Below are positions 3,130-59,997 of a stretch of 64,000 nt of DNA, in pieces. Every line of letters begins with the position of its first letter. Within the stretch, counting starts at the first letter, position 1. Origin of the DNA: Rikenellaceae bacterium (GTDB lineage Bacteria > Bacteroidota > Bacteroidia > Bacteroidales > Rikenellaceae). The stretch covers positions 23,605 to 87,604 of the forward strand of contig SUZG01000001.1 of the NCBI GenBank assembly GCA_015060015.1. Reading direction: 5' to 3'. A program made the position numbers and the translations under genes. A model generated the notes under the pieces. The model searched no databases, was not told where the DNA came from, and saw nothing but the letters and a program-made list of their open reading frames with translations.

Positions 3130-3271
3130 GCTTGTTTCGTGGTGCAAATATAGAGCAAAAAAATGATTCTGCAAATTTTTTTGCAAAAAAAGTACATTTT
3201 TCTGCTCAAAACACTCTGAATGGCTCTCAAAAGGGCTTTTGAAAAGGCCCATTATGAGTTACTCGTTGGGG

Positions 3272-13293: not shown

Positions 13294-14208
13294 ATGGATA
13301 ACCTGCAACTCATAGAACGCTTCACACTCTACCTCGCGGCAGAACGTCGTTACTCGCCCCTGACGGTGCGTAACTATCTGCGTGATATTGACGACTTTAT
13401 GGCGTGGGGCGAGAGGATGTCGGGCGGCGAGTTCTCTCTCGCGGAGGCTCGTGGCGAGGATATCCGCAGCTGGGAGCTCTACCTGGCCGATGAACGCCGC
13501 CTGAAACCGCAGTCGATAAATCGTGCTGTGGCATCGTTGCGGACTCTCTACAAATATATGTTGAGCAACGGCATTATCACAAAGGATATCTTCGTGAAGG
13601 TGAGTGCAATGCGTACCGCCAAGCGACTGCCTAAATTTGTGTCGCAGAACACTATGTCGGAGGTTGTGGAGGAGGTGCTGCGACTGCTGCGTGAGGGCGA
13701 GTGGCGTGAGAGGCGGGATGCCCTGCTGGTGCTGCTGCTCTACGCCTGCGGGCTGCGTCTGGCGGAGGTTGTGGGCATCGACAGAGGTGACTTCACTGAC
13801 GATTTTCACTCATTGCGGGTTCGCGGCAAGGGCGACAAGATGCGTATTGTGCCCCTCGTCGAGAGGGTACGTAGCGAGGTTTTGCGATATATTTCCGCAT
13901 TTTCTGCCGAAAAAATTTGCAAAAAAGATGAAAATGCACTATTTTTATCTCCACGTGGAGGTCGTATATCCCGCAGCGACGTACAACGCAGCGTGGCACG
14001 CCTTCTGCGGAGTTGTGGCGTGGATGGCAAATGCTCGCCTCACGTGTTGAGGCACACCTTCGCAACACATCTGCTGAATGACGGTGCCGACATACGCGAG
14101 ATACAGGAGCTGATGGGTCACACCTCACTCAATGCAACGCAGGTATATACCCACAACGATATAGCCTCGTTGCAACGAATATACGCCGAGGCCCACCCGC
14201 GAAAGTAG
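13294..14208 (+). CDS. xerC: Chromosomal tyrosine recombinase XerC/XerD
   Basis: YLAAERRYSPLTVRNY, LLYACGLRLAE (R), GKGDK (K), PHVLRHTFATH (HxxR) and MGH..TQVYTH (H, Y); adjacent to hpf as usual in Bacteroidota. Start set at ATG 13294, downstream of the promoter. Confidence 0.85.
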   Translation: MDNLQLIERFTLYLAAERRYSPLTVRNYLRDIDDFMAWGERMSGGEFSLAEARGEDIRSWELYLADERRLKPQSINRAVASLRTLYKYMLSNGIITKDIFVKVSAMRTAKRLPKFVSQNTMSEVVEEVLRLLREGEWRERRDALLVLLLYACGLRLAEVVGIDRGDFTDDFHSLRVRGKGDKMRIVPLVERVRSEVLRYISAFSAEKICKKDENALFLSPRGGRISRSDVQRSVARLLRSCGVDGKCSPHVLRHTFATHLLNDGADIREIQELMGHTSLNATQVYTHNDIASLQRIYAEAHPRK

Positions 14209-14711: not shown

Positions 14712-14817
14712 TAGGGAATTTAGTGAATTTAAGGAATTTAGGGAGATTAAGGAAAAACACTAAATTCACTAATTTCTCTAAATTCCCTAAACTCTCTAAA
14801 CTCCCTAATCTCCCTAA
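14712..14817. repeat. Head-to-head arrays of a degenerate 9-bp repeat (TAGGGAATT-like, then CTAAATTCC-like)
   Basis: tagggaatt tagtgaatt taaggaatt tagggagat taagga ... ctaaattca ctaatttct ctaaattcc ctaaactct ctaaactcc ctaatctcc ctaa. Confidence 0.85.
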
Positions 14818-23149: not shown

Positions 23150-23163
23150 AATGGACAGAGGGA

Positions 23164-23772
23164 TTACTCGGCTTCATCCCAATTTCGAGTGTAAGTTTGT
23201 TGTACTTTTTCAAGTTCTTCGGGCGTCATTCGCTTGTATGTTCCCAAACCATAGATATTTTTGGTAAATAACGCATTCGTTCCTATATATTCTATGCAGA
23301 CCATTGTATCGTCATCTAATTCAAGCAAACGGAACATCAGGATAGTATTATCTTTTATTCTTATAGCAGAATCCTCAAAAGCATAGTCATAATTGCAGTA
23401 TCCTTTGTCTTCGCCCGGCGGATAGGCAGAGGAAGATGTGTATTGGGTAAGAACTGTTTCATTTATGTAAAAATTATATGAACCTCCACCATCGCGACCT
23501 TCCCAAAAGTTTGCAACTTCTATATTACCATTATCAAAAATCTCGTGAAGATCAATTTGTTTCCAACCATAATTCTTTATTTCGGCTGTAAAAACATCCT
23601 CACTAATACCCTCAAAACTCTGACTATAACACTCTCCTTCCGAGTTAAACGTCAAATTATATTTTGTAGCCACTTCTGTCTCTGGCTCATTGGGAGGTGT
23701 TTGTGGGGTTGATTTATCCTCACACGCCACCATAGCTACTACGGCAAGCAGTGCCAAAAACATTTTTTTCAT
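23164..23772 (-). CDS. Hypothetical lipoprotein (AT-rich gene)
   Basis: MKKMFLALLAVVAMVA-C lipobox followed by an acidic Pro/Thr linker; the sequence is visibly more AT-rich than its neighbours. Confidence 0.75.
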   Translation of the reverse strand: MKKMFLALLAVVAMVACEDKSTPQTPPNEPETEVATKYNLTFNSEGECYSQSFEGISEDVFTAEIKNYGWKQIDLHEIFDNGNIEVANFWEGRDGGGSYNFYINETVLTQYTSSSAYPPGEDKGYCNYDYAFEDSAIRIKDNTILMFRLLELDDDTMVCIEYIGTNALFTKNIYGLGTYKRMTPEELEKVQQTYTRNWDEAE

Positions 23773-23912
23773 AGTAATTAGGTTTTTTTAATCTGATAAT
23801 CTTTCGTAAGAATTTCCATTCTCGCTTGCAAGTTAGTAATAAACAAGCAATTATGCAAATATTTTGACAAAAAGTGCTTGATAGCAACCAAAAAACCTAT
23901 TTTAGGGTTACA

Positions 23913-23958
23913 CCCCATTAACGCGGGTATACAAAAATATACCCGTGCTACTTGGGGA
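23913..23958 (-). terminator. Hairpin downstream of crcB (putative terminator)
   Basis: CCCCA..CGCGGGTATA-caaaaa-TATACCCGTG..TGGGG. Confidence 0.45.
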
Positions 23959-23998
23959 TGACAGAGAGGGATATTTCAAAACGAATCGAGCAAAACCT

Positions 23999-24462: not shown

Positions 24463-24487
24463 TCTACGGACATTATCAAACAAAAAA

Positions 24488-24640
24488 CGGAATTATATAG
24501 ATTAATGTTGTACTTCAAAAATGTATAGAGATTCTCACGCATTTGTTTTTTTCGTCACTCTGAGGGAGGCTTGCCGACCGTGAGAGTCTAAAAACAAATG
24601 CTCAGAATGACGTTTAACAACACTAAACTATATAATTCCG
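24488..24640. mobile_element. MITE-like element copy 1 (153 bp), IS1595-family-like ends, REP-like core
   Basis: Terminal inverted repeats match at 21/23 (24488-24510 CGGAATTATATAGATTAATGTTG; 24618-24640 CAACACTAAACTATATAATTCCG). Flanks ACAAAAAA/AAAAAAAA match at 7/8. The 86-bp core 24529-24614 is shared with copy 2. Confidence 0.75.
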
Positions 24641-24659
24641 AAAAAAAAGAGTTTTCACT

Positions 24660-24962
24660 ATGCATTTAACACCAAAAGAGCTTGACAAGTTGACGCTGCT
24701 GTCGTTGGGAATGATAGCAGAAAGACGATTGAAAAAGGGGCTGAAACTAAATCACCCCGAGGCCGTAGCCTACATAACCTCGGAAGCCATAGAGGGTGCT
24801 CGCGAGGGGATGACCGTAGAGCAGGTTATGAGCCGAGCGGCGAAGCTCCTCACACGAAAGGATGTGATGGAGGGCGTAGCCGATATGATTCAACTATTGC
24901 AGGTCGAGGCGGTATTCACCGACGGCTCACGACTTGTGAGTATTCACCACCCCATAAAATAG
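24660..24962 (+). CDS. ureA: Urease subunit gamma
   Basis: [11 protein letters not shown]...[14 protein letters not shown]...[18 protein letters not shown]. Confidence 0.96.
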
Positions 24963-24967
24963 CGACT

Positions 24968-25489
24968 ATGACAAAAGAGAAGAGTGCTGCACGCACAAAG
25001 GAGAGTGCGGCAGCGACAAACCCCAACAGCAAGGGGCTTTATCCCGCCGAGAAGGGTTTCCAGCCCACGAAAGCCACCCCGATAGGAGGTGTGGTGTTCG
25101 GACGGGGCGACATAACATACAACGAGGGACGACAGGTCATAACCCTCACGATACGCAACACGGGCGACAGACCCATACAGGTAGGCTCGCACTTCCACCT
25201 CTTTGAGGTGAACCGATATCTGGAATTTGACCGCAGGGCGGCCTTCGGCTACCACCTCAACATACCCGCCACAACGGCCATACGCTTTGAGCCGGGCGAC
25301 GAGAGGAGCATCGAGGCGGTGGCCTTCGCCGGAAAACGCCGCATAATAGGCTTCAACGGTCTTACCGAGGGGTATGCCGGCACGGAGGATAGCCCCACAT
25401 ACCTGCCCACAGAGCATCGTGCCATACACCGTATGCACAAGGCAGGATTCAGATGCAGCTGCAAGAAGTGTAACACTAAAAAAGAGTAA
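24968..25489 (+). CDS. ureB: Urease subunit beta with N- and C-terminal extensions
   Basis: [19 protein letters not shown] and [15 protein letters not shown]. Confidence 0.95.
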
Positions 25490-25491
25490 CT

Positions 25492-27210
25492 ATGGCAAAA
25501 CTTACGCGACAGGAGTACAACAACCTATTCGGCCCAACCGTAGGCGACAAGATTCGTCTGGGCGACACCGACCTCTATGTGGAGATAGAACGCGATATGC
25601 GTCGCTACGGCGACGAGGTGGTCTATGGCGGTGGCAAGACGCTGCGTGACGGTATGGGTCTGGCCAACACTGTAACATCGGAGCAGGGAGCTCTCGACAT
25701 AGTAATAACGAATGTGACAATCATAGATGCCATATTGGGTGTGGTGAAGGCCGACGTAGGCATAAAGGATGGCCGCATAGCGGGCATAGGCAAGGCGGGC
25801 AACCCCAACATTATGGACGGCGTGTCGCCCGAACTCGTCACGGGAGCCGCCACCGACGCCATATCGGGTGAGCATCTCATACTCACCGCCGGCGGTATCG
25901 ACTCACACGTTCACTTCGTATCGCCACAGCAGGCATACACAGCCCTGAGCAACGGCATAACGACACTCATAGGTGGCGGCATAGGCCCCTCGGACGGCAC
26001 AAACGGAACGACCATAACATCGGGACGCTGGTCCACCGAGCAGATGCTGCTCTCGGTGGAGGAGCTGCCTGTGAATGTGGGTCTGCTGGGCAAGGGTAAC
26101 TGCTCGGCGAAGCCTGCGATAAAGGAGCAGATTGAGGCGGGCGTATGCGGATTGAAGATTCACGAGGACTGGGGCTCAACACCCGAAGCCATACGCACAG
26201 CCCTGTCGGTGGCCGACAAGTATAATGTGCAGGTGGCCATACACACCGACACACTGAACGAGGCGGGATATGTCGAAGACACCATAGCCGCCATAGATGG
26301 CCGCACGATACACACCTACCACACCGAGGGTGCCGGCGGAGGACACGCCCCCGACCTGATGAAGGTGGCGTCGATGCCCTTCGTGCTGCCCTCATCGACA
26401 AACCCCACACTGCCCTTCGGCATAAACTCACAGGCCGAGTTGTTTGATATGATTATGGTGTGTCACAACCTCAACCCCAACATCCCGTCGGATGTAGCCT
26501 TTGCCGAGAGCCGCGTAAGGCCCGAGACACAGGCGGCAGAGAATGTGCTGCACGATTTGGGCGTATTGTCGATGGTGTCGTCCGACTCGCAGGCGATGGG
26601 CCGAGTGGGCGAGTCGTATATGCGTACATTCCAGATGGCTTCGTTTATGAAGAGTGCCTGCGGCCGCTTGGAGGAGGACTCGGCCGAGAACGACAACTTC
26701 CGCGTGCTGCGATACATAGCCAAGATAACGATCAACCCCGCCATAACATTCGGCGTGGCGGACTACATAGGCTCGGTCGAGAAGGGCAAGGTTGCCGACC
26801 TTGTGCTGTGGGAGCCGCAGTTCTTCGGTGCGAAGCCCAAGATGGTAATCAAGGGTGGCGTGATAAACTGGGCGAACATGGGCGATGCCAATGCCTCACT
26901 GCCCACGCCACAGCCCTGCCTCTATCGCCCGATGTTCGGTGCTTTTGGCGGTGCTATGCCGGCGAGCTGCATATCGTTTGTGTCGCAGGCGGCCTGCCGG
27001 AACGGCATTGCCGAACATTTGGGTCTGCGTCGTCAGGTGCTGCCCGTACGCCGCACACGCCAGCTCTCGAAGGGCGATATGGTACGCAACGGAGCAACGC
27101 CACGCATAGATGTCAATCCGGAGAGTTTCGAGGTGATGGTAAATAACATACACGCCTACGTGAAGCCGGCCGAGAGATTTCCGCTGTCGCAACTCTATTG
27201 GTTTGGGTAG
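25492..27210 (+). CDS. ureC: Urease subunit alpha
   Basis: [13 protein letters not shown]; Ni ligands DSHVH, LKIHED (carbamylated Lys), [13 protein letters not shown], flap MVCHNL and SSDSQAMGR. Confidence 0.98.
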
Positions 27211-27211
27211 T

Positions 27212-27772
27212 ATGATAGTCTGCGACACTATTCTGGGCAACATCCACGACGAGGAGTGGGCCGCACGCCTCGCAGCGTACAGCATAGAGGAGATTATGCT
27301 CGACCAATGGACGGCACAGAAGAGCCGTTTTATGGTTCATGCCGCCGATGGCGAGGAGTATGCCGTAACGCTGCAACGCAACACGCGGCTGCAAGATGGC
27401 GACATAATACACTGCGACGAGGCGACTCTTCGCCTCACTGTTGTGCGGATGGACCTCAACGAGGTGATGGAGATTGACCTTTGTCAGCTGCTGGACGAGC
27501 AGCCCGACGACATAATACATACGGCCGTTGCTCTCGGTCACTCCCTCGGCAACCAGCACTGGCCCGCAGTGGTCAAGGGGTGCAAAGTATATGTGCCACT
27601 GACGGTGGACAGGAAGGTTATGGCGAGTGTTATGCGTACGCACAACTTCGACAACATAACATTCTCGTTCCGCAACGGCAAGGAGATTATACCCTACCTC
27701 TCGCCGCACGAACTGCGGCGTCTGTTTGGCGGGGATGAGCATAACGAACATCACACGCACGATGAGAGATAA
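27212..27772 (+). CDS. ureE: Urease accessory protein UreE (Ni chaperone)
   Basis: LDQWTAQKSRF, RLQDGDII and LGHSLGNQHWPAVV; short His tail EHNEHHTH. ATG at 27212. Confidence 0.9.
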   Translation: MIVCDTILGNIHDEEWAARLAAYSIEEIMLDQWTAQKSRFMVHAADGEEYAVTLQRNTRLQDGDIIHCDEATLRLTVVRMDLNEVMEIDLCQLLDEQPDDIIHTAVALGHSLGNQHWPAVVKGCKVYVPLTVDRKVMASVMRTHNFDNITFSFRNGKEIIPYLSPHELRRLFGGDEHNEHHTHDER

Positions 27773-28496
27773 CCGCCCCACCGCAGAGGTTGTGATGCGT
27801 CTGCTGCAACTCTCGGACTCGGCCCTGCCCATAGGCACATTCTCCTTCTCGAACACGCTGGAGAGTGCTGTGGAGTGGGGCGTGGTGGGCGACAGGGAGT
27901 CGCTGCAAGAGTATTGCTCCGAGCTTTTACGGGTGGTGGCACTGACCGATGGTGTGGCGGCTCTGCACGCACTCAAAGCCTGTAACAGAGCCCGTTATGA
28001 CGATATTCTGCGAGCCGACAAACTGCTCTTTTGCAGCAAAGCATCCGACGAGGCCCGTCTGATGACGCAGCGTATGGGGCGAAAACTCGCAGAGTTGGGG
28101 GTGGCACTCGCAACATCTGAAAACAACCCCACCGAGGAGCATAAGGCCTCTGCAACGATACTACGCTGGCACGACGACATACGCAGCGGAAAAGCCGCAG
28201 GGTGCTGTGCCGTATCGCAGGGCATCATAGCCTCCACATTCGGTATCGGCGAGGAAGCTTTGTTCGCCTCGCTATGCTACTCGGCGGCGATGATGATACT
28301 CTCGGCGGCACTGCGGTCGATGCGTGTGACGCACATCGTCACGCAGCAGATTATCGGCGAGATATGCCACCTCGCAGAGCCTCTGCTTGCAGAAGCGAGA
28401 GGTCTTACCGTAGAGGATATGCAGAGCTTCGCCTTGGAGTATGATATTATGGCTTCACTCCACGAAAAGGGAGATAAGCGTTTGTTTATGAACTGA
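27762..28496 (+). CDS. ureF: Urease accessory protein UreF
   Basis: [24 protein letters not shown]...[11 protein letters not shown]. Start is uncertain (27726, 27735 or 27762). Confidence 0.9.
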
Positions 28497-28503
28497 TTGG
28501 ACA

Positions 28504-29145
28504 ATGAACACAACTTGCAGAATAGGCATAGGCGGGCCCGTAGGGTCGGGCAAGACCGCCATAATAGAGGCCATAACGCCTCGCCTGCTTGATGCCGGCC
28601 ACCGCGTGCTGATTATCACCAACGATGTGGTAACAACCGAGGATGCACAGCACGTCAGGCGTATGTTGAAGGGTATTTTGGTCGAGGAACGTATCATTGG
28701 CGTAGAGACGGGTGCCTGCCCCCACACAGCCGTAAGAGAGGACCCCTCGATGAATCTGGCCGCCGTAGAGGAGATGGAGAGTCGCTTCCCCGATGGTGAT
28801 GTGGTGCTGATTGAGTCGGGTGGCGACAACCTGACACTCACATTCAGCCCCGCACTTGTCGATTTCTTTATCTATGTGATAGATGTGGCGGCGGGCGACA
28901 AGATTCCACGCAAGGATGGGCCGGGGATATCGCACTCCGACATACTCGTAATCAACAAATTTGACCTCGCACCATATGTCAATGCCGACCTCGACGTTAT
29001 GCGTCGTGACTCAAAGGCGATGCGTGGCAACAAACCCTTCGTTTTCACGAACTGTATGACGGGCGAGGGCATAGCCGAGCTTACCGAGATGATACGGCGT
29101 ATGGCTCTGCTCGACCACATAACACCCTCACGGAACGATGATTAG
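28504..29145 (+). CDS. ureG: Urease accessory GTPase UreG
   Basis: [24 protein letters not shown] and NKFD. Confidence 0.96.
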
Positions 29146-30103
29146 CGATTGGCACAAGGCCGACAACGACACCAACACTCCGCACAATGCCGACACCAAC
29201 ACTCCGCACGAGGTGCTGCGTTACATCAGTCCGACACCCTACGCCCGACTCGGCACGACGGGCAAGTCGGGTTTTCTGCGGCTCGGCTTCGAGTGCGACG
29301 CCAGCGGGCGGACAATACTTCGCGACTGGGAACGCCGCGTGCCACTCATCGTGCAGCAGGCTCTCTACTTCGACGAGCAGTTGCCCGATATGGCGTGTGT
29401 CTATATACTCTCGTCGGGAGGCCCCAACCTCGATGGCGACCGCTACGAGCAACTATTCACGCTGCGACGCGGAGCAATGGTACACCTCTCGACGGGTGCC
29501 GCCACGAAGATTGCCGAGATGCGTCACAACTACTCCTCGCTGCGGCAACATATACGCCTGGAAGAGGGCTCCTATCTGGAGTATCTGCCCGAGCCGGTGA
29601 TACCCTGCCGGCACTCGCGTTACATATCCGACACGCAGATAACCATAGCTCACTCGGCGGTGTTGCTCTATGGCGAGATATACCTCCCCGGACGGCGACA
29701 CTACGGGCGTGGCGAGAGGTTTGAGTATGACCTGCTGTCGGTGGCTATGCGTGTAGAGAGGGAGGATGGCGAACTGCTCTTTCGCGAGAAATTTACAGTT
29801 GAACCACACCGACACCACCCGCAGCGGAGAGGTGCTATGGGAGAATACGAGATATTTGCCAATGTGGTGCTTATAGCCGATGAGCCGATAGCCGACGACA
29901 TATATAACGCCACCACGCCCGCAATAGACCACGCCGAGGAACTGCTCTACGGCATCACGCGGCTGCCCAACCACTGCGGCGTGCAGCTCAAGGTGCTGGG
30001 CAACAGCACCGACAAGGTAAAACGGCTGGTGCGTCACTTTGCATCGCGAGTGAGGCAGAGGGTGAAGCACAAGCCTTTGAGAGATGATTTTGTTTGGAGA
30101 TAA
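29138..30103 (+). CDS. ureD: Urease accessory protein UreD
   Basis: [39 protein letters not shown] and [16 protein letters not shown]. Confidence 0.9.
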
Positions 30104-30112
30104 ATTACTGAT

Positions 30113-31156
30113 ATGGAAGAGATTAAGACATTAGAAGCGGAGTCTGCGGAGCAGACCACCCGCAGCGTGATAGACGAACTTCTACGGGGTGCCGGGCAGG
30201 TGATGTTTCAGAATAATGTATGGACCGGACTGTTCTTCCTGATAGCCATATTCTGGGGCTCGCTGCGTGAGGGCGAGATGATGGTGGCGTGGGGAGCATT
30301 GCTCGGTCTTGCGACATCGTCGGTTACGGGCCACATCTTGCGACTCCCCGCCGCCGACGGCCGTCAGGGGTTGTGGGGCTTCAACGGCATATTGGTCGGC
30401 TGTGCCTTTCCGACATTTTTAGGCGAAACGACAGGTATGTGGATAGCCCTTATAATATGTGCTGCGATGACTACCTGGGTGAGGTCGGGGCTGAACAATG
30501 TGATGGCTCCGTGGAAGGTGAACTCCTTCACCTTTCCCTTTGTGCTTTGCACCTGGATATTCCTCCTCGCTGCACGAGCCATGCAGGGCATACCCATCGA
30601 CGATATGTCCACGCCCTCGCTACCCTCGCACTTCACCTCGCTATCGACAATTCCGCCATTGCACCTGCTGGAATATTGGCTCAAAGGCGTGGCACAGGTC
30701 TTTCTGATTAACTCGTGGGAGGCGGGTCTGCTCATACTGATAGGTCTGGCGGCGAATGACCGCTGGGCGGCATTGTGGGCGGCGATAGGCTCTGCTGTGG
30801 CGTTGCTCTGTGCCATAGCGTTCCGGGCCGCAGGCAACGATGTGGCAGGAGGCCTGTATGGATTCAGCCCCGTACTCACTGCCATAGCCCTCGCCACAGT
30901 CTTCTACAAACCCAACTGGCGGTCGGCACTATGGTCGCTGATGGGCATCATAGTAACGGTCTTTGTGCAGGCGGCGATGAATATTGTTATGCAGCCGATA
31001 GGCATACCCACCCTCACAGGCCCCTTCTGCGTGGCGACGTGGTTGTTCCTGCTGCCTATGATACGCCTCGACTATCAGACCGAGCTGGACCACTCGAACT
31101 GGAGTGTCGAGAACAAGCCGCACCTCGCACGACACAGCTCAAAAAAGCCGAAATAA
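30113..31156 (+). CDS. Urea transporter (UT/Yut/UreT family)
   Basis: Duplicated halves GAGQVMFQNN..TGLFF / GVAQVFLINS, GLWGFNG / GLYGFSP and LTGPFCVATW. Confidence 0.92.
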   Translation: MEEIKTLEAESAEQTTRSVIDELLRGAGQVMFQNNVWTGLFFLIAIFWGSLREGEMMVAWGALLGLATSSVTGHILRLPAADGRQGLWGFNGILVGCAFPTFLGETTGMWIALIICAAMTTWVRSGLNNVMAPWKVNSFTFPFVLCTWIFLLAARAMQGIPIDDMSTPSLPSHFTSLSTIPPLHLLEYWLKGVAQVFLINSWEAGLLILIGLAANDRWAALWAAIGSAVALLCAIAFRAAGNDVAGGLYGFSPVLTAIALATVFYKPNWRSALWSLMGIIVTVFVQAAMNIVMQPIGIPTLTGPFCVATWLFLLPMIRLDYQTELDHSNWSVENKPHLARHSSKKPK

Positions 31157-31221
31157 TAGGATTTCTCCAAATGATATTACTCCTGTTCCGAAGAGTTTCC
31201 AACGATTAAAAAACTTACGTT

Positions 31222-32211
31222 ATGCATATGTCAGACGCCCTTATCTCGCCCTCAGTAGCTGCTGTGGCGGGAGTTGTGGCTGTGAGCCTCATAGCCGTAG
31301 CCATACAGAATTGCACTGCAAAAGCCTCAACACTCAACCCCGCACGCCGCGAGTATCTCTTTCCGCTTATGGGCGTGCTGGGGGCATTCATCTTCGCCGC
31401 ACAGATGATAAACTTCACGATTCCCGGCACGGGGTCAAGCGGTCATATCGTGGGAGGCATACTGCTTGCCGCCATACTCGGCCCCTGGCCCGCCTTCCTG
31501 ACACTATCGTCGGTGCTGATTATTCAGGCTCTGATATTTGCTGATGGCGGCATTCTGGCTCTCGGCTGCAACATAATAAATATGGCGGCTATGTCGTGCC
31601 TCGTCGCCTACCCCATATTTTTCAGAACGCTGGTATGCCCCAACGCCTCTGCGGCGAGGATAAGTGCAGCCTCCATCATCGCCTCTGTCATCGCCCTGAT
31701 GCTGGGTGCGGCAGCTCTGTCGGCCGAGACAGCTCTGTCGGGCGTGGCAGCACTCCCCATGCGGCAGTTTCTGGTCTATATGGTCGTCATACATCTCGTC
31801 ATAGGCTTCGGCGAGGGTATCGCTACGGCCGCCGTTCTCGCCATTGTGAGGCACTACCGCCCCGATATACTCTTCGAGAACAACCTCGGCACGACAAGGC
31901 CTACCGTCGCACGCCGTACGGCACGCGTCATATCACTCTTTGCCATTGCCGCCCTCATCATCGGAGCATCGTTCTCGTGGGTCGCTTCGTCAAAGCCCGA
32001 CGGCTTGGAGTGGTCTATCGAAAAGGTGGCCGACAATACGACACTCGCCAACCCCGACACCCACTATCACCGCATAGCGGCACAGATGCAGGAGCAGACG
32101 GCTCTGATGCCCGACTACGACACCTCGCTGGCGGGCATACTGGGTAGCGGAGCTATCATTCTGGGGGTCTTTGTCATAGCCTATATATTCCGTTATCAGC
32201 CCCGACGATGA
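31222..32211 (+). CDS. cbiM: ECF-type Ni/Co transporter substrate component, CbiM/NikM fused to PDGLE (NikN-like) domain
   Basis: N-terminal MHMSD, FAAQMINF, GSSGHIVGG, QALIFADGGILALGCN and C-terminal SKPDGLEWS. Confidence 0.9.
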   Translation: MHMSDALISPSVAAVAGVVAVSLIAVAIQNCTAKASTLNPARREYLFPLMGVLGAFIFAAQMINFTIPGTGSSGHIVGGILLAAILGPWPAFLTLSSVLIIQALIFADGGILALGCNIINMAAMSCLVAYPIFFRTLVCPNASAARISAASIIASVIALMLGAAALSAETALSGVAALPMRQFLVYMVVIHLVIGFGEGIATAAVLAIVRHYRPDILFENNLGTTRPTVARRTARVISLFAIAALIIGASFSWVASSKPDGLEWSIEKVADNTTLANPDTHYHRIAAQMQEQTALMPDYDTSLAGILGSGAIILGVFVIAYIFRYQPRR

Positions 32212-33008
32212 GCCGGCGGCTATACGAGGCTCTGCATCTGATAGATGCCACAGAGCATACAGCACGCCAGAAAACGCCCCTTGCACAGATAGATGCGAGG
32301 GCGAAGATGGTCGTGCTGCTCACATTTCTGCTCACGATGCTCTCGCTGCCCGTCGAGAGGCTCTCCGAGCTGATGCTCTTTGCCATATATCCAATCACTA
32401 TGGCGGCAGCTGCCGGTATTGGCTATGGTCAGCTGCTGCGACGGTCACTCATCATCATACCCTTCGTGGCCCTCATAGCTCTGCCCAACATCCTCTATCA
32501 GCGTGAGCCTGTGCTGGTGGAAGGTGGCGTGGTCATCACGCGTGGCTGGATAACACTCCTCGCAATCACTCTGCGAGGCGTACTCGCAGTGCAGGGCGTG
32601 GTGGTGATGATAGCCTCTACGGGTCTTTATGGCACTTGTCGGGCGATGCAGAGGCTGGGAGTGCCATATATTCTGGCCTCGCAGATATATCTCACACTGC
32701 GTTACATACGCCTGATGGTCGAGCAGGCTCTCCACCTGCAACAGGCTGTGGAGTCGCGTCTGTTTAGTCGCAAAACCCTGCCGCTGACACTCTGGGCAAG
32801 GCTTACGGGGCGGCTTCTCCTCCTCTCCATTGGGCGGGGCGAGGCTGTGGGGCGTGCTATGGCCTCGCGAGGCTTTGTCGGGCAGATGCCACAACTACCC
32901 TACCACCACACCAGACGATGGCGACGAAGGGACAGCGTTTATCTTGTGGTGTGGTGCTGCACGCTGCTCTGCCTGCGTGTGCTGCACTTCGCCGAGATGA
33001 TTTTTTAG
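32208..33008 (+). CDS. cbiQ: ECF transporter transmembrane T component (CbiQ/NikQ)
   Basis: DARAK, LTLRYI, ESR and RGEAVGRAMASRGF (T-component Ala/Ser-Arg-Gly motifs). Confidence 0.88.
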   Translation: MSRRLYEALHLIDATEHTARQKTPLAQIDARAKMVVLLTFLLTMLSLPVERLSELMLFAIYPITMAAAAGIGYGQLLRRSLIIIPFVALIALPNILYQREPVLVEGGVVITRGWITLLAITLRGVLAVQGVVVMIASTGLYGTCRAMQRLGVPYILASQIYLTLRYIRLMVEQALHLQQAVESRLFSRKTLPLTLWARLTGRLLLLSIGRGEAVGRAMASRGFVGQMPQLPYHHTRRWRRRDSVYLVVWCCTLLCLRVLHFAEMIF

Positions 33009-33011
33009 TTT

Positions 33012-33154
33012 CGGAATTATCTATTTTAGGCTTGTTGCTAAAAAATAGATTCTCACGCATTTGTTTTTCGTCACTCTGAGAGAGGCTTGCCGACCGTGAG
33101 AGTCTAAAAACAAATGCTCAGAATGACGTTACAAGCCTAAATGATATAATTCCG
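33012..33154. mobile_element. MITE-like element copy 2 (143 bp) inserted between cbiQ and cbiO
   Basis: TIRs match at 21/24 (33012-33035 CGGAATTATCTATTTTAGGCTTGT; 33131-33154 ACAAGCCTAAATGATATAATTCCG). Perfect 8-bp direct duplication TTTAGTTT at 33004-33011 and 33155-33162. Core 33047-33130 differs from copy 1 only in T-run length (5 vs 7) and one G/A substitution. Confidence 0.82.
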
Positions 33155-33168
33155 TTTAGTTTTATGCT

Positions 33169-33906
33169 ATGCACCACTACCTGACATTCAATGACATACA
33201 CTTCCACTACCCCCACGCCGAGGAGGCTCTGCGGGGTGTGTCGTTCACGCTGCACCACGGCGAGCACGTCGCCATAGCAGGTGCTAACGGAGCCGGCAAA
33301 TCGACCCTGCTGATGCTCTGCAACGGCCTGCTGATGCCCACCTCGGGATGGGTCGATGTGGGAGGCGTGAGGCTCACCGAGCAGAGCCTGCAAACCATTC
33401 GCCAGCAGGTGGGGCTTATCTTTCAGGATGCCGACAATCAGCTCTTTATGCCTACCGTCGAGGAGGATATTGCCTTCGGGCCGTCACTTATGCACCTCAC
33501 CGACGAGGAGGTCGCAACACGCACCTCGCAGGCGATGCACGAGGTAGGCATCGAGCATCTGCGGGGGCGTGAGCCGCACTCATTGTCGGGTGGCGAGAAG
33601 CGGCGTACAGCCATAGCTACGGTGCTGGCGATGACACCCTCCATTCTGCTGCTTGACGAGCCTACGACAGGTCTTGACCCCAGATCGCGGCGGCAGCTGA
33701 TAGCGTTGCTGCGGAGCTTCCGGCACACGATGCTCATAGCCACGCACGATATGGATATGATAGCCGACCTCTGCCCCCGCACGATACTTCTGAACGAGGG
33801 TGTGGTGGCGGCAGATGCACCTACGGAGAAGATTTTTGACGATGCTTCACTGCTGGAAAGGTGCGGATTGGAGAGGCCCCTATCGTGGCAGGCGAGGGAG
33901 TTTTAA
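33169..33906 (+). CDS. cbiO: ECF transporter ATPase (CbiO/NikO)
   Basis: GANGAGKST, FQDADNQLFMPTVEEDIAFGP, LSGGEKRR and LLDEPT. Confidence 0.93.
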   Translation: MHHYLTFNDIHFHYPHAEEALRGVSFTLHHGEHVAIAGANGAGKSTLLMLCNGLLMPTSGWVDVGGVRLTEQSLQTIRQQVGLIFQDADNQLFMPTVEEDIAFGPSLMHLTDEEVATRTSQAMHEVGIEHLRGREPHSLSGGEKRRTAIATVLAMTPSILLLDEPTTGLDPRSRRQLIALLRSFRHTMLIATHDMDMIADLCPRTILLNEGVVAADAPTEKIFDDASLLERCGLERPLSWQAREF

Positions 33907-34440: not shown

Positions 34441-34483
34441 AGCGTAAAGTTTATTGCATCAGAGGCAATAAACGAGCCGAAAA

Positions 34484-34567
34484 CGAGATGAAAGATAAAA
34501 GATGAAAGAGCAAAGAGTTGTGACTCTAAATATCTTTCCTCTTTGCTCTTTTATCTTTACTCTTGTT
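34484..34567. repeat. Inverted arrays of a 7-bp repeat (AAAGAnn, then TCTTTnn)
   Basis: aaagata aaagatg aaagagc aaagagt ... tctttcc tctttgc tctttta tctttac tcttgtt. Confidence 0.75.
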
Positions 34568-35987
34568 TCACGTCGCAGACCTTCGTGAGGCCTCTCTCCG
34601 CGGCTAACTTCTCCATCAGAGCATACGCCTCGTCGTAGTCGTTGCGTATCTCGCCATCGAGAATGGCATTCTTGATTATCTCCTTCATCTCGCCGATGAT
34701 GTTGCATGGCTGCAAGGCGTAGCACTTCATAATGATATCGCCCGTGATGGGGGGCTGGAAGTTGCGGATACGGTCGCGTTCCTCCAAATCCTTCATCTTG
34801 CGACGCACCAGCTCGAAGTTGGCAAGATAACGCTTCACCTTGGCATCAATGCCCGATGTGATGTCGGCCTCGCACAGCGTCATCAGCTTTTCCACATCGT
34901 CGCCCGCCTCAAACAACAGACGCCTTACGGCCGAGTCGGTGACCATATCCTCGGACAGGATAATGGGTCGCAGATGCAGATAGACCATCTTCTGCACGAA
35001 CTTCATAGGCTCGCCCAACGGCAGTTTCAGGCGGCGGAAGATATCGCGTACCATCTTCGAGCCGACAACCTCGTGCTGGTGGAACGTCCAGCCTATATTC
35101 TTGTCGTAGGCCTTCGTCAGCGGCTTGGCTATGTCGTGCAGCACAGCCGCCCAGCGTAGCCACAAATCGTCACTTCGGCGTGCCACATTATCCAGCACTT
35201 TCAGCGTGTGGCGGAAGTTATCCTTATGGGCGTGGTTGCCCACCCTCTCAACGCCGCACAGGCGTTCCATCTCCGGAAAAATCAACTCCAGCAGACCCGT
35301 CAGATGCAGCAGGTCGAAGCCGATAGAGGGCACAGGCGAGAGAACTATCTTATTGAGTTCCACCTGAATACGCTCCTTCGACACTATCTTGATGCGTTCC
35401 TTGTTGCGGGCGATGGCATCGAAGGTCTCCTCCTCGATATCGAAGCCCAGCTGCGTGGCAAAGCGTATGGCTCGCATCATACGCAGGGGGTCGTCCGAGA
35501 AGGTTATATCGGGGTCGCAGGGCGTACGGATAATGCAGTCCTCCAGGTCGTACATACCCTCAAAGGGATCCACCAGCTCGCCAAACCTATCGCCGTTCAG
35601 ACACCACGCCATAGCGTTTATGGTGAAGTCGCGGCGACGCTGATCATCCTCCAGCGAGCCCGGCTCAACGGTCGGCTTGCGAGAGTCGTGGGTATAGGAC
35701 TCCTTGCGGGCCCCCACAAACTCAACCTCCGTACCTCCGGCACGCACCATAGCCGTTCCGAAGGTCTTGAATACCGACACCTTGCCCCGCACCTCGCGAC
35801 CCAGAGCCTCGGCAACCTCTATACCGCTGCCCACAACCACGACATCGATGTCAGTCGAGGGGCGACGCAGATAGTAGTCACGCACATAGCCGCCCACGAC
35901 ATAGGCCTCAACGCCGAGCCTATCGACGATGGCGGATATCTTGCGGAAGATGGGGTTTGAGAGTGCTTTATTATCGTTCATCGGCAT
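34557..35987 (-). CDS. cca: CCA tRNA nucleotidyltransferase with HD domain
   Basis: VVGGYVRD, DIDVVV, DQRRRDFTINA, DDPLRMMRAIRFA and LHDIAKP. Confidence 0.93.
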   Translation of the reverse strand: MPMNDNKALSNPIFRKISAIVDRLGVEAYVVGGYVRDYYLRRPSTDIDVVVVGSGIEVAEALGREVRGKVSVFKTFGTAMVRAGGTEVEFVGARKESYTHDSRKPTVEPGSLEDDQRRRDFTINAMAWCLNGDRFGELVDPFEGMYDLEDCIIRTPCDPDITFSDDPLRMMRAIRFATQLGFDIEEETFDAIARNKERIKIVSKERIQVELNKIVLSPVPSIGFDLLHLTGLLELIFPEMERLCGVERVGNHAHKDNFRHTLKVLDNVARRSDDLWLRWAAVLHDIAKPLTKAYDKNIGWTFHQHEVVGSKMVRDIFRRLKLPLGEPMKFVQKMVYLHLRPIILSEDMVTDSAVRRLLFEAGDDVEKLMTLCEADITSGIDAKVKRYLANFELVRRKMKDLEERDRIRNFQPPITGDIIMKCYALQPCNIIGEMKEIIKNAILDGEIRNDYDEAYALMEKLAAERGLTKVCDVKQE

Positions 35988-49333: not shown

Positions 49334-49390
49334 CTTATCTCTTATCTTTGCTCTTTTCTCTTTGCTCTTTTCTCTCTCCTATCCTCTTAT
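49334..49390. repeat. Pyrimidine-rich 7-bp tandem repeat
   Basis: cttatct cttatct ttgctct tttctct ttgctct tttctct... Confidence 0.65.
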
Positions 49391-50106: not shown

Positions 50107-51597
50107 CTACAATGGATTCTGATCTGCGTCAGTGATGTATGGATTAGAGTTGATCTCAGAAGAAAGAGGAATCTGGAAAGTAAACAACTTACCAGCAGCC
50201 TGAACAACCTTATCAATATGGTTGCCAGAATCTGTACGGTCAATACCTACGTTGAAACGCTTGTTGGTATACCACTCGTGACCCTCACCCCACAACTCGA
50301 TACGGCTCTGCAAGTGAATCTCCTTCAAGAGCTCATCGCCTGTCTTCGATGACTTAGTGTAACCACTATCACGCTTTGACACCAAGTCGAACAAAGTCTG
50401 CTGTGCAGCAGCTGCCTGATTGTTGCGAGCCTCAGCCTCGGCCTTCAAGAGGTAAGCCTCTGAAAGACGGAAGAAAATCTCGTCAGTCTCCCATGTAGGA
50501 TGATCAAACTTTGTAGAAACGTAAGCGGGACGTTCGTACGACTTACCATCGTTAACATTAACAACCGGACCTGACTCCTTTACGAAATTCTTCTTACGAT
50601 AGTCGGTATCGGGAATCTGGTTGTAAAGACGGTCATCGATACAAATATAGATGCCTTGGTTAGAACCGTTATTGTCGAGAATAGATGGAGATGTCCAAGC
50701 AGAGAAAGCTTTGTTACCATTTGATGTAGAGATTGCCCAATCATAACCAAAAATAGTCTCCGGATATGATACATCGAGGAATCCTCCTGTATACTGCTCC
50801 TCATTCATCAATGAGTAACCAGATGCGATAACAGCTTCAGCAGCAGTAACGGCATCATCATACTCTCCGATAGTTACGCATACGCGAGCCAAAATCATAT
50901 TGGCAACATCCTGATCAATATCAGCGATTGTCTCCTGTGGATTGTAAGCATTCTCCTCGAACAATGTGACAGCTGACTCCAAGTCGCCCTTAATCTGAGC
51001 ATAAACCTCGGTTGAAGGAGTACGACCCATAGCACCACCTACAGTCAGATGGAGAGGTACACCGGCCTTATCCTTACCACCATGCATATAGTCATCCTGA
51101 TAGAGGTACATCAAGTTGTAGTAAGCCAAAGCACGATAGGTCAATGCCTGTGCCTTATAGATGGCTGCCGCACCTGTTACATCAGCAGGAATAAGATCCA
51201 AAATCTGGTTTGCCTTGTAAACCATCTTGTAGTAGAGGCTCCAACGACCAGAAGTGAAAGAGTCGGTCTGACGACGAAGATTAATCAACGCATACTGATC
51301 TGCATACCAGTTGGTATTGTTACTTAAAACCATATCATTACCCTGCATATCCATTTCCAAGCCCCAGCATGCATAACCGATATCCTCGGTACCGCTGTCA
51401 GGAGCTGCCGAATGGAGGAAACTGATAGCAGACTGCATCATAGGAGCCAAAACCTTGTCGGCATCCTTCTTAATAAGCTCTTGGAGCTGCTCATCAGATA
51501 TTGAGCTACCTGCGGGATCAACATCGAGAGCATTAGCACATGATCCAAAGAGCATCGTTACGGCAATAGCCGCCAAATATAATATATTCTTTTTCAT
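50107..51597 (-). CDS. RagB/SusD family lipoprotein (left pair)
   Basis: Lipobox LFGS-C, ALTYRALAYYNL, FRLSEAYLLKAEA and RIELWGEGHEW. Confidence 0.93.
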   Translation of the reverse strand: MKKNILYLAAIAVTMLFGSCANALDVDPAGSSISDEQLQELIKKDADKVLAPMMQSAISFLHSAAPDSGTEDIGYACWGLEMDMQGNDMVLSNNTNWYADQYALINLRRQTDSFTSGRWSLYYKMVYKANQILDLIPADVTGAAAIYKAQALTYRALAYYNLMYLYQDDYMHGGKDKAGVPLHLTVGGAMGRTPSTEVYAQIKGDLESAVTLFEENAYNPQETIADIDQDVANMILARVCVTIGEYDDAVTAAEAVIASGYSLMNEEQYTGGFLDVSYPETIFGYDWAISTSNGNKAFSAWTSPSILDNNGSNQGIYICIDDRLYNQIPDTDYRKKNFVKESGPVVNVNDGKSYERPAYVSTKFDHPTWETDEIFFRLSEAYLLKAEAEARNNQAAAAQQTLFDLVSKRDSGYTKSSKTGDELLKEIHLQSRIELWGEGHEWYTNKRFNVGIDRTDSGNHIDKVVQAAGKLFTFQIPLSSEINSNPYITDADQNPL

Positions 51598-51618
51598 ATT
51601 TTATACCCTCCTTTAATT

Positions 51619-54600
51619 TTACAAGTTAAGTGTCAAACCAAATGTAAATGTGCGTGCCTGCGGGAAGTTTACGAATGCTGTGCCTGTGTAACCTGCACGA
51701 GGATCGAAACCGTCGTGAGCAGTGATGAAGCACAAGTTATCAGCATTGAAGAATACTCGCAATGACTGCAAACCGATCTTTGAAGTCCACTTCTTGGGCA
51801 ATGTATAACCAACATTTACGTTCTTCAGATTGAAGTAAGAAGCCTTACGATACAATGCATCGCATCTTGAAGAACCAAAGTCCCAAACACCATTGTAGAT
51901 AACACGTGGGTACTCTGCATTAGGATTCTCGGGAGTCCAAGTATTACCTGCCAAGTCGTCAGATACGGCAAAACCGGGACGCCAAACCTCGTACAAGTTA
52001 GCAGAAGCAGCATCCCACTGAAGACCACCCAACTGATAAGCAGCTGCTACGGTCAAATCGAAGCCCTTCCACTGGAAAGTAGTGCGGATACCACCTACGA
52101 TATCGGGCATTGCATCACCAATCTCATACTGTGAAGCCTCAGCGTAGTTCTCGGTAAGCTCGTCGCCGATAACATTACCGTTCTCGTCCTTAATCTGCTT
52201 CCAGAACTGCTCGTTACCATTCTCAGGATTAACGCCTGCATACTTGAACAAATAGAGGTTGTAGTATGACTTACCCTCGCCACGAAGGAATGCACCTGAT
52301 ACATAGTTACCACCGAGTGCGGGGTTACCCAACTCTGCGGGGAAGTCGATCAACTTGTTCTGCGACATAGCACCGTTAATGCTGATGTTCCAGTATACAT
52401 TCTTTGTCTTGATAAGATCAACTGTTACATCAAACTCGAAACCAGAGTTCTCCAATACACCTACATTCTCCAAGCGTGAAGACAAACCTGTTGAAGATGG
52501 AGTAGGACGGCTCCAGATAAGATCATGAGTACGACGGTTATAGTAATCCAAAGTACCATAAACGCGATCCCACAAACGGAAGTCAACACCTACATCGACC
52601 TGCTTGTTCTTCTCCCAGCTAAGATTACGGTTACCGATTGTTGACTGTGAGATAGTAGGCTGGCCATTCAACTCACCGATACCCCAAAGGTTTGTATAGG
52701 GATAAGCAGAGCTCAAACGGTTACCAGAAACACCATAGGTAGCACGCAAACGAAGGTCATTTACCCAAGTAGCGTTCTCCATCCACTTCTCATTGTTAAT
52801 CTTCCAAGAAGCACCCACTGACCAGAAGTGACCCCACTTGTCATACTTAAACATTGAGGTACCATCGTAACGATAAGAAGCTGATACGGTATAACGATCA
52901 TCGTAGGTATAGTTTGCACGAGCAAAGTAACCCTCGATAGCAGTCTTAACAGTTGAAGAGGTAGAACCATCCTCCAATGGAGTGATAGCGTTACCCAACT
53001 CAGGAATACCCGGGTAGAATACGTTCTTCTTGTAAGCATCAACTGTTACATCCTCGTCCTTGCTGAACTCGTGACCAATCATTGCATCAACAACATGTAC
53101 CTTGTTGATCTTCTTGTGGTAAGACAACATCTGCTGAGTATTCAACGACATATAGTTGTTCATAACCTTCTCAACGATACCGTTCCAAGATGGGTCAGCA
53201 GCTGTACCATACTCATTGTTAGAGTAATAAGTAGCAGCAGCATATACATTGTCCAATGTAATGTTTGCAGTGAACTTGAAATCCTTCAAGAAAGTGATAT
53301 CAACATAAGCGTTTGCAAAGAGGTTATCACGAATCTGATTGTTAATGTCGTGAGTGAATGACTGATAAGGGTGAGCAGAGTTCATAGAGTTGAAGATATC
53401 CAGACCTGGTCCATAAACAGAGGTTGTTGTACCCATACCATTCTCATAAACCTTATTACCATTCTCATCCAAGATGATGTTACCTTGCGGGTCGCGTGCA
53501 TAGTAAGGCACCAAAGGTGACTGCCAAGCAGTCCAAAGGAATGCGTTACCAGTGTTAGCAGCACCACCGAAACCAGGGTTATCGGTATCACGACGTGTGT
53601 AGGCGATGTTAGTACCCAGCTTCATCCACTTTGTAACCTGTGCATTTACGGCAGCACGAGCTGAGAAACGCTTGAACGCAGACATGATAATGTAAGAAGG
53701 ATCCTCCAAGAAACCTCCTGATACATAGTAATCAACACGGTCGTTACCACCACTTACACTCAAAGTGTACTCCTGACGGAACTGCTGAGTAAAGAGATAA
53801 TCGTCGTAGTTATCATAGTAGAGCAACTTTGCGTCCTTGTGGATCTTACCTGTTGTAGGATCAATAGGAGTAGACATACCCTCAGGAATAGAATAAGGCA
53901 TATATCTTCTGAGCATTGTTGACAGGTTGCCTTGTGCCAAGCCGTGAGCACGAGCAGCGTCGCCACCATAGCCATCAAGACCATAGTTATACAAGCCCAA
54001 GTAGAAGTGCTCGATATACTGAGCAGGGTCCATTGTATGGTGCTCCTCTACACCAATCTCGTTCCAACCCCACTTACCCTCGAAGGTAATGTTGGCTTTC
54101 TGATTGCGAGCACCCTTCTTTGTAGTTACGAATACGACACCATTCGCTGCACGAGCACCATACAATGCGTTTGCAGCAGCATCCTTTGATACTACAACTG
54201 ACTCGATGTCAAGAGGGTTGATAGTTGTAAGTGATGATGAATAAGGTACACCATCAACAACAATCAACGCACCTGTGTTACCATTGATAGAACCGACACC
54301 ACGAATAAGAATAGAAGCATCGGTACCTGGCTGACCTGTTGTGCTGTAAGACTGAATACCCGGAACAGCACCCTCCAAGGCCTTAGTAACGGTTGATACA
54401 GTCATCTTCTGAAGGTCCTTGGCGGTAACGGCTGCAACCGAACCGGTCATATCCTTCTTCTTAACCTCACCGAAGGTCTGAACGACAACCTCATCAATGG
54501 CTTGAAGGTTCTCCTTCAACACAACGTTAAAAGAGGTTTTGCCGGCAACCTCAATACGCTGGGCCTCATAACCGATGAACGATACTAACAAAGTACCATT

Positions 54601-56754: not shown

Positions 56755-56762
56755 CGAATGTA

Positions 56763-59972: not shown

Positions 59973-59997
59973 TTAACAGTAACCTTAAAAACAGATA

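Follow-up and report, generated by a model that had tools for sequence, protein, structure and literature searches.

The stretch analyzed here (the window) comprises 64,000 nt of contig SUZG01000001.1 from a Rikenellaceae bacterium (GenBank assembly GCA_015060015.1), and its sequence is also contained in a 266,746-bp contig of a gut metagenome assembly in the European Nucleotide Archive. It has a G+C content of 52% and carries a urease/nickel operon, in which the urease genes ureABC-EFGD are followed by a urea transporter gene and by cbiM-cbiQ-cbiO. Two short elements are inserted in this operon, one in the leader of ureA and the other exactly at the junction of cbiQ and cbiO. Both are small non-coding miniature inverted-repeat transposable elements (MITEs) with terminal inverted repeats, and, as argued below, they were very probably mobilised in trans by a DDE transposase belonging to IS1595, a family of insertion sequences (IS). 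The operon and the two copies are located as follows.

24660..33906, + strand: host operon with both insertions, in the order ureA-ureB-ureC-ureE-ureF-ureG-ureD, urea transporter, cbiM, cbiQ (32208–33008), cbiO (33169–33906), assigned from Pfam families on called genes and the list of open reading frames (ORFs)
24488..24640, + strand: MITE copy 1, 153 nt, type-1 arms, in the ureA leader, 19 nt before the ureA ATG (24660)
33012..33154, + strand: MITE copy 2, 143 nt, type-2 arms, exactly at the cbiQ-cbiO junction

Both copies begin with CGGAATTAT and finish with ATAATTCCG, and they can be aligned with each other over their entire length. Their G+C content is 36–38%, compared with 52% for the window. 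Words of 18 and 22 nt taken from the core were each present twice in the window, against 0.03 and 0.00 occurrences in shuffled sequences. Neither copy contains a credible ORF; the ORF list holds only spurious overlapping ones. The ends and flanks of the two copies read as follows.

24480..24487: left target-site duplication of copy 1, ACAAAAAA
24488..24511, + strand: left terminal inverted repeat of copy 1, CGGAATTATATAGATTAATGTTGT
24617..24640, + strand: right terminal inverted repeat of copy 1, ACAACACTAAACTATATAATTCCG
24641..24648: right target-site duplication of copy 1, AAAAAAAA
33004..33011: left target-site duplication of copy 2, TTTAGTTT, which includes the cbiQ stop codon TAG (33006–33008)
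33012..33035, + strand: left terminal inverted repeat of copy 2, CGGAATTATCTATTTTAGGCTTGT
33131..33154, + strand: right terminal inverted repeat of copy 2, ACAAGCCTAAATGATATAATTCCG
33155..33162: right target-site duplication of copy 2, TTTAGTTT

The terminal 9 nt form a perfect inverted repeat in both copies, and the 24-nt arms are complementary at 22/24 positions in copy 1 and at about 21/24 in copy 2. Between the two copies, the arms share only ~75% identity and fall into two subfamilies, type 1 (...TATATAGTTTAGTGTTGT, copy 1) and type 2 (...TATCYATTTTAGGCTTGT, copy 2). The flanking duplication is perfect at copy 2 (8/8, TTTAGTTT on both sides) and matches at 7/8 positions at copy 1 (ACAAAAAA versus AAAAAAAA). 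An earlier sequence-only reading of this DNA had given the coordinates and end sequences of both copies exactly as listed here, and had described a perfect duplication at copy 2, a 7/8 A-rich duplication at copy 1, an absence of coding capacity from both copies and an absence of transposase genes from the window; all of these statements held.

Among the MITE copies with both ends readable, including those at other loci (designated L), most had matching flanks: four had 8/8 duplications (copy 2, L006, L027 and L007) and five had 7/8 duplications (copy 1, L001, L005, L009 and L054). Mismatched pairs of left and right flanks, used as a control, agreed on average at 2.6/8 positions, and 1.5% of them reached at least 7/8. 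The length of the duplication was constant at 8 bp across MITE copies. The targets were A/T-rich 8-mers, such as AAATTCTT, TAATGTAA, AATTATTT and AAATAAAA, which fits strictly intergenic insertion within a G+C-rich genome. At L001 (~3195–3218, read on the − strand), a 14-nt solo type-1 end (CGGAATTATATAAT) was located 6 nt upstream of a complete type-2 copy, and it may be what is left of a previous insertion into this A/T-rich position. Other solo arm-like matches in the loci and in the window (e.g. window 13887–13897) were dismissed as chance matches.

Unoccupied versions of both sites were found by looking up the exact CbiO and UreA proteins of the window in public assemblies. The copy-2 site was empty in five contigs (L011–L015), in which the cbiQ-cbiO gap is 9 nt instead of 160 nt and the unoccupied site reads GATGATTTTTTAGTTTTATGCTATGCACC, with a single TTTAGTTT between the cbiQ stop and the cbiO start; the alignment across the empty site reads ...GATGATTTTTTAGTTTTATGC..., again with one TTTAGTTT. 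The copy-1 site was empty in four contigs (L017, L018, L021 and L022), which lack 153+8 bp upstream of ureA; in L021 and L022 a 16-nt ATCA..GAG stretch is left, the length being exactly that expected after subtraction of 153+8 bp. The empty-site strains are close relatives of the window strain, with identical CbiO/UreA proteins and 97.3–99.0% nucleotide identity over the flanking genes. In all of these comparisons, the boundaries of presence and absence coincided with the CGG...CCG ends plus the 8-bp duplication. In addition, metatranscriptome runs X25 and X7 contained a contig of the copy-1 site in the empty form (joint of 24479/80 to 24643), and in run X7 other contigs spanned cbiQ into the MITE and the MITE into cbiO. 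If the X7 contigs came from one strain, this mixed state means that the two insertions were independent events. In our reading, the two copies in the window go back to separate and recent insertions, with a different arm subfamily as the source of each.

The family extends well beyond the window. In a scan of one genome per species, a 22-nt core word was found in nine copies, all in three Alistipes metagenome-assembled genomes (MAGs; 5, 3 and 1 copies) and each at a different site. A scan of metagenomes for the central module gave 36 further loci, whose neighboring proteins clustered with Alistipes and Rikenellaceae proteins. In metagenome X1, the core was covered at a depth of 900–1100×, against 24–26× for its flanks; across the gut metagenomes holding the window strain, the core reached 37–45 times the flank depth, an excess that is an upper bound on copies per genome since other Alistipes species add depth. 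Contigs of gut metagenome assemblies end inside the MITE core. Blastn searches of PLSDB plasmids and INPHARED phages gave no relevant match to the MITE or to a 41-nt arm, and literature searches by topic and by sequence strings returned nothing on this MITE family, which is apparently undescribed.

Elements with the same ends and a transposase gene were reached through the type-2 arm. A scan of viral contigs with this arm yielded one match, L061, in which the arm closes an element that encodes the C-terminal portion of an IS1595 transposase and, after it, an N6-methyltransferase and an HsdS-like protein; the type-1 arm found no match in the viral contigs. The L061 transposase scored E 3.4e-20 on Pfam PF12762 and 77 bits on NCBIfam NF033547 (cut-off 75), and its fragment, used as a protein query, retrieved 168 relatives. 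The complete cognate elements, which were recognised in the genomic surroundings of these relatives and so independently of the arm sequence, are 2,269 to 4,538 bp long, and both of their ends fit the consensus CGGAAyTATnyAnTTTAGkCTTGy. One such 'transporter' IS element occupies 3916–7831 of L062, and similar ones are present in L061, L064, L065–L070, L073 and L074–L079. Six independent complete elements are each flanked by a perfect 8-bp duplication:

L062: duplication AAGATTTT
L064: duplication ATAATCTT
L065/66/67/69: duplication TTTATTTT
L073: duplication TTTCATTA
L074–76: duplication AACGAAAA
L077: duplication AAGTTTTT

The MITE arms match the ends of these IS1595 elements over 22–25 nt. 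The left arm of copy 2 was 100% identical over 25 nt (MITE positions 2–26; blastn E 2.4e-9) to a Parabacteroides-type right end (L066), so that 25 of the first 26 positions agree, and it agreed at 24/25 positions with the right end of L062. The end of L077 equals the first 12 nt of the copy 1 left arm and of type-1 arms in general. The cognate transposases scored 125–182 bits on NF033547 against the cut-off of 75. Two intact ones, P0168 and P0178 (311–313 amino acids, aa), contain Zn_ribbon_IS1595 (PF12760) and a full-length DDE_Tnp_IS1595 domain (PF12762), and alignment with IS1016 showed that D, D and E(+7 K) are retained, the third acidic residue lying within GIESFW with K at +7. The passenger genes sit downstream of the transposase gene. 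This cargo varies, and is usually of the restriction-modification type: a methyltransferase plus a specificity subunit, a fused methyltransferase, an Eco57I-like protein of 1,099 aa, or small genes including one for a SocA_Panacea protein.

The named hosts of the cognate elements were a Parabacteroides sp., Akkermansia, a high-G+C member of the Bacteroidales and a Prevotellaceae-like bacterium. We had considered placing an autonomous element in Alistipes, and dropped this because the hosts identified were Akkermansia, a 'Bacteroidales bacterium' and Prevotellaceae-like bacteria. The Akkermansia copy has 37% G+C within flanks of 58% G+C, and its transposase is 93–100% identical to that of a copy carried by an integrative element of Bacteroidales type, which implies a recent transfer between phyla. 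In the transposases P0067, P0046 and P0081 (L062, L065–L072), the reading frame is lost at one common point, immediately ahead of the third catalytic residue, and the remainder can be read in another frame; the intact 311–313-aa versions share 90% clusters with these broken ones. The common break may reflect decay that the genes share, or else a frameshift that recurs or is programmed. A tblastn search of plasmids with an IS1016 transposase sequence returned IS1595 genes, none of them from Bacteroidales.

The interior of the MITEs is of a different nature. Its parts in the two copies are arranged as follows, on the + strand.

24529..24612: core of copy 1, with an outer repetitive extragenic palindromic (REP)-like unit that is reversed and split into halves at 24529–24539 (AGATTCTCACG) and 24601–24612 (CTCAGAATGACG)
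24540–24552 / 24590–24600: extended stem of the outer unit, copy 1
24553–24589: inner CGTC-tagged unit M, copy 1
33047..33128: core of copy 2, with outer halves at 33047–33057 and 33117–33128
33058–33068 / 33106–33116: stem, copy 2
33069–33105: inner unit M, copy 2

Over the 84-nt core, copies 1 and 2 differ by one substitution and a 2-nt indel in a T run, and in general the core is 98–100% identical between copies whose arms are ~75% identical. The M module has the form CGTCACTCTGAG-GGAG-(mini hairpin)-CGAC-CGTGAGAGTCT, and the N module the form AGATTCTCACG-(hairpin CA...TG)-CTCAGAATGACG; N is the reverse complement of a unit of M design, with T/A replacing C/G at one stem position. The design common to these units is an unpaired CGTC head, a 5-bp stem (AYTCT/AGART), a conserved internal loop (GAG/CGTG) and a variable second stem-loop, and units in Alistipes/Rikenellaceae loci read CGTC-AYTCT...AGART-CT. 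In the MITEs, the loop of a reversed N unit holds an M unit, and the second stem of this N unit is lengthened to 11–13 bp; at L007 and L041 the outer unit has the opposite orientation. The interior is a CGTC-tagged REP-like unit nested in the stem-loop of another, and not an IS remnant; the sequence-only reading had not noted this composition. Because of this nesting, the whole element with its arms can fold into one long imperfect hairpin, predicted at −47 kcal/mol, and the folding of copies 1 and 2 exceeded that of shuffled sequences with z scores of −5.8 and −6.0.

Base changes in the stems agree with such pairing. At the covarying stem position, the units carried C:G in 43 cases and T:A in 14, with 2 exceptions; the C:G class was preselected by the search pattern, and in the T:A class, which was not, 14/15 agree. 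Among the T:A units, one whose inner hairpin is of the M type was also found. Of 27 distinct variants of the mini hairpin, 26 have a complementary closing pair, and the long stem B:B' shows two compensatory double changes, in L039 and L046. A ribozyme core was rejected because the invariant nucleotides of hammerhead, hairpin and hatchet ribozymes are lacking (compared by eye), and Rfam agreed. A reading of the core as three crossing helices that exclude one another, or as a switch able to invert, was prompted by the opposite orientation of the outer halves in L007 and L041; the nested-unit reading is simpler and is supported by the C:G to T:A covariation within units, and no inversion joints were present among the reads over the core.

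Units of this design also exist without arms, as N-spacer-M, M-spacer-N, single units and clusters, and N-spacer-M is predicted to fold as a four-way junction. The genes around the free units are ordinary housekeeping genes, and the units can point either way; dimers of both orientations exist, and all but one of the units examined were intergenic. No recombinase or Y1/HUH gene was found beside the unit clusters examined. In the window, M/N units are confined to the two MITEs. On contigs JDSF/JDSG (L029 501–935, L044 and L052), AGTC-headed M-type units form arrays with a spacing of 170–230 nt, interleaved with inverted-repeat modules GTCATTGCGAGG...TCGCAATGAC and GAAGCAATCT...AAGATTGCTTC, and one neighboring protein clusters with a protein of a 'Denitrovibrio sp.' MAG. 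A/T-rich intergenic palindromes of short AAAGAGCAAAGA-type and GAATTTAGGGAATTTAG-type motifs occur in the window at 34481–34568, 14712–14789 and 49336–49388, and motifs of these types also flank free M/N units in Rikenellaceae metagenome contigs. Such recurrences suggest a wider mosaic of short intergenic repeat 'bricks' in the Rikenellaceae lineage.

Both insertions leave the ORFs of the operon intact. At copy 2, the cbiQ stop is retained in the left duplication and the original sequence before cbiO is restored; at copy 1, the A-rich leader is duplicated, so that the ureA ATG keeps 19 nt of native sequence in front of it. Neither copy contains a predicted terminator-like site, and metatranscriptome contigs link copy 2 to both neighboring genes, evidence that is at the contig level and may include DNA. 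Read-through of the copies, which would add ~150 nt of strongly folding RNA to the transcript, is therefore likely. A σ70-like −35/−10 pair (ATGACG, 16–18 nt, TATAAT; 10/12) faces outward at both right ends, and carries little weight because its consensus differs from that of Bacteroidetes promoters. An effect of the insertions on expression of urease or of the nickel transporter would be conceivable. Searches of the window and three loci against Rfam assigned the MITEs to no family at the gathering threshold, with only noise at E values up to 10 (snoRNA-like matches and RAGATH-13 at E 3.3). In the same window, 25642–25942 (− strand) matched 5_ureB_sRNA, an antisense small RNA (sRNA) of Helicobacter, with 57 bits against a gathering threshold of 40, antisense in the 5′ part of ureC; this match is most likely conserved urease coding sequence and not an sRNA gene.

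Because cognate IS1595 elements have the same ends as the MITEs and duplications of the same length of 8 bp, we regard the family and the mechanism as established. The sequence-only reading had proposed a non-autonomous family, probably undescribed, mobilised in trans, and had named as tests the search for an IS1595 transposase with the same ends, for further copies in the genome and for empty sites with a single TTTAGTTT between cbiQ and cbiO. Each search bore the proposal out: transposases above the NCBIfam cut-off were found between shared 24-nt ends with perfect 8-bp duplications, further copies lie at unrelated sites in three Alistipes MAGs and in metagenome contigs, and both window sites are empty in near-identical strains. 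That the family is probably undescribed agrees with the literature and Rfam searches, which came back empty. In the mechanism that we propose, the transposase would recognise the ~24-nt terminal inverted repeats with the consensus given above and make a staggered cut of 8 bp in an A/T-rich target, and gap repair would then yield the 8-bp duplication. The autonomous partners would be the 2.3–4.5-kb 'transporter' IS elements, which combine the same ends with a transposase and mostly restriction-modification-like passenger genes.

Several observations weigh against this interpretation. Pfam searches on called genes, covering nearly the whole window, detected two tyrosine recombinases and no DDE transposase. 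No cognate transposase was found in ~70 kb of Alistipes MAG loci or in ~230 kb of metagenome loci, an all-against-all comparison of ORFs from the MITE loci revealed no multi-copy transposase, and the L061-type transposase allele (at least 85% nucleotide identity) was absent from X1, X2, X7 and X10, the runs holding the window strain. None of the named hosts of the cognate elements is Alistipes, and many cognate transposase copies are truncated or frameshifted; action of an IS1595 transposase within Alistipes itself is what we infer. Beyond the terminal ~25 nt, the MITE copies share nothing with the six complete autonomous elements (blastn), and conservation is higher in the core than in the arms, an unusual pattern if the MITE were purely selfish. 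The contig-level nature of the transcript evidence counts on the same side. Finally, chimeric arm combinations are present in L024 and L027; recombination between copies therefore also occurs and contributes to shaping the MITE family. With these points taken into account, movement of the family in trans by an IS1595-family DDE transposase remains highly probable.

The features that make the elements look like RNA are also those that would favor a conserved cis-regulatory RNA, a riboswitch-like leader of the urease/nickel operon that became fixed and was duplicated within it: both copies are in the sense orientation, one in the leader and one where two functionally linked genes meet, their folding is far stronger than that of shuffled sequences, and their stems carry compensatory changes. 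The sequence-only reading had itself noted that an element always present at these positions, with no empty alleles in relatives, would suggest such an RNA. Both sites are, however, empty in near-identical strains, which excludes a fixed regulatory RNA; in other genomes the element lies beside unrelated genes in both orientations, its 8-bp duplications and IS1595 ends point to transposition, and it has no Rfam match. We consider this explanation extremely improbable. A question of a different kind is whether the copies, being MITEs, have been co-opted, with an outward promoter or an RNA-stability or processing hairpin altering the expression of ureA or cbiO. The outward σ70-like pair at the right end of both copies, the long predicted hairpin and the transcript contigs that join copy 2 to both neighbors would agree with this, but the Bacteroidetes promoter consensus differs from the one scanned, empty alleles are common in the same species and contig depth is no measure of expression. 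Co-option, which is compatible with the MITE interpretation, therefore seems to us rather doubtful.

The remaining alternatives concern the origin of the interior and what drives its spread. Since internal deletion is the usual origin of bacterial MITEs, and since both arms resemble IS ends (the type-2 left arm especially resembling an IS right end), the family might be a classical internal-deletion derivative of one IS, with leftover IS sequence as its interior; yet the blastn comparison with the six autonomous elements stops at the terminal ~25 nt for both copies, and the interior modules occur without arms at many loci and at none of the IS loci, so that we hold such a derivation to be unlikely. 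It could also be argued that the REP-like units themselves drive the spread, as a REPIN-like doublet moved by a single-strand HUH/RAYT-type enzyme, the likeness to IS1595 ends being incidental. The CGTC-tagged hairpin units are indeed found free, as inverted doublets and in clusters, the conservation of the core exceeds that of the arms, and REP dimers within longer palindromes are on record (PMC3733652). Against this, presence and absence change exactly at the CGG...CCG ends plus an 8-bp duplication, which HUH enzymes do not make, the arms match IS1595-element ends over 22–25 nt, no Y1/HUH gene lies beside the unit clusters examined, and CGTC REPs are reported to lack a dedicated transposase (PMC3733652); we regard a REPIN-like mode of spread as very improbable. 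Under IS1595-driven movement, the core could still be a real passenger, consisting of transposase-less CGTC-tagged REP-like units that were captured between IS1595 ends and spread via a borrowed DDE transposase. We put this forward tentatively, as a possibility that falls well short of being probable. If true, it would answer how CGTC REPs without a dedicated enzyme get mobilised, and the core would then be nearly invariant on account of a function of its units at the level of the host or of RNA/DNA structure, and not because transposition needs it.

Insertion sequences of the IS1595 family with passenger genes were reportedly described by Siguier, Gagnevin and Chandler in 2009 as 'transporter IS'. 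The cognate elements resemble this family in their Zn-ribbon and DDE_Tnp_IS1595 domains, the D..D..E(+7 K) residues, the 8-bp duplications and the passenger genes. The MITE ends CGGAATTAT fit the ISfinder end consensus sequences CGGnnTT of ISNha5 and ggnnatTAT of ISNwi1, and the cognate ends CGGAATT likewise fit the CGGnnTT of the ISNha5 group; this likeness is a lead to the subgroup and not a test. The MITEs share with the IS1595 elements the 24-nt ends and the length of the duplication, and differ from them in encoding nothing and in an interior unrelated to the IS. For ISNha5, the one passenger type cited in PMC11891212 is transcription regulators, whereas the cargo of the cognate elements consists of restriction-modification-type methyltransferase and specificity subunits or an Eco57I-like enzyme.

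Hairpin-forming MITEs located in operons are known classically as Correia/NEMIS of Neisseria, RUP of S. pneumoniae and ERIC/IRU of enterobacteria. The window family resembles Correia, RUP and ERIC elements in size (about 100–160 bp), in being non-coding, intergenic and A/T-rich with terminal inverted repeats, in probable co-transcription with neighboring genes, in its presence/absence polymorphism among strains and in its many copies per genome. It differs from all of them in its IS1595 parent, its Alistipes host and its core of REP-like units, and from Correia, which makes a TA duplication, in its 8-bp duplication. Inverted doublets of short intergenic hairpin units that can fold as a larger hairpin are shared with the REPIN/RAYT systems of Pseudomonas and enterobacteria; the REPIN tag, however, is GTAG and not CGTC, and unlike REPINs, which have a single-copy RAYT and no target duplication, the window elements have DDE-type ends and duplications, and no RAYT was seen. 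The core units are closer to the CGTC-tagged REP super-family of Di Nocera, De Gregorio and Rocco (2013, PMC3733652), which is present in five phyla including Bacteroidetes, has no dedicated transposase and includes REP dimers that are sometimes embedded in longer palindromes. Like these REPs, the core units start with an unpaired CGTC, have A as the first base of the stem (AT in the N type), and are dispersed in intergenic regions, as inverted dimers and clusters, with no adjoining transposase gene. The described CGTC REPs have one 8–9-bp stem starting with AT, a 4–5-nt loop and a CCA-like tail (PMC3733652), whereas the core units have a 5-bp stem (AYTCT/AGART), the internal loop GAG/CGTG, a variable second stem-loop and a CT tail, and one unit can nest in the loop of another in either orientation. 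By these features, the core units are probably relatives, and not members, of the CGTC-tagged super-family.

Two further loci of the window were noted. An insertion/deletion of ~846 bp with low G+C content (~23150–23995) lies between the gene for a DUF4387 protein and crcB, and holds a 202-aa lipoprotein-like ORF (23164–23772, − strand) with no Pfam match. It is present in the window and in L018 and missing from L017 and L021, and no inverted ends or duplication were seen. At 50107–61611, a tyrosine recombinase gene (55041–56291) is located between two divergent SusC/SusD pairs and is bracketed by 106-nt inverted repeats (54754–54859 and 56759–56864) that are 97% complementary, with a weaker inverted similarity running through both susC genes. 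This region looks like an invertible or shufflon-type outer-membrane locus of Bacteroidales, to judge from its layout.

IS1595-type non-autonomous elements mobilised in trans were already known, and what is new here is the MITE family itself; less ordinary are its nested REP-like core, more conserved than the ends, and the cognate transporter elements with cargo of a defence type. This family interrupts short-read assemblies of Alistipes at every copy. The IS1595 'transporter' elements with which it has its ends in common bring along restriction-modification-type genes, and since they occur both in Akkermansia and in several Bacteroidales, they point to exchange across phyla within the gut. 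The location of REP-like CGTC units inside a DDE-type MITE makes the spread of such units experimentally approachable. In the urease/nickel-uptake operon of a common gut genus, the family provides a recently active, strain-variable insertion, whose alleles can serve as strain markers and whose filled and empty forms could differ in urease expression.

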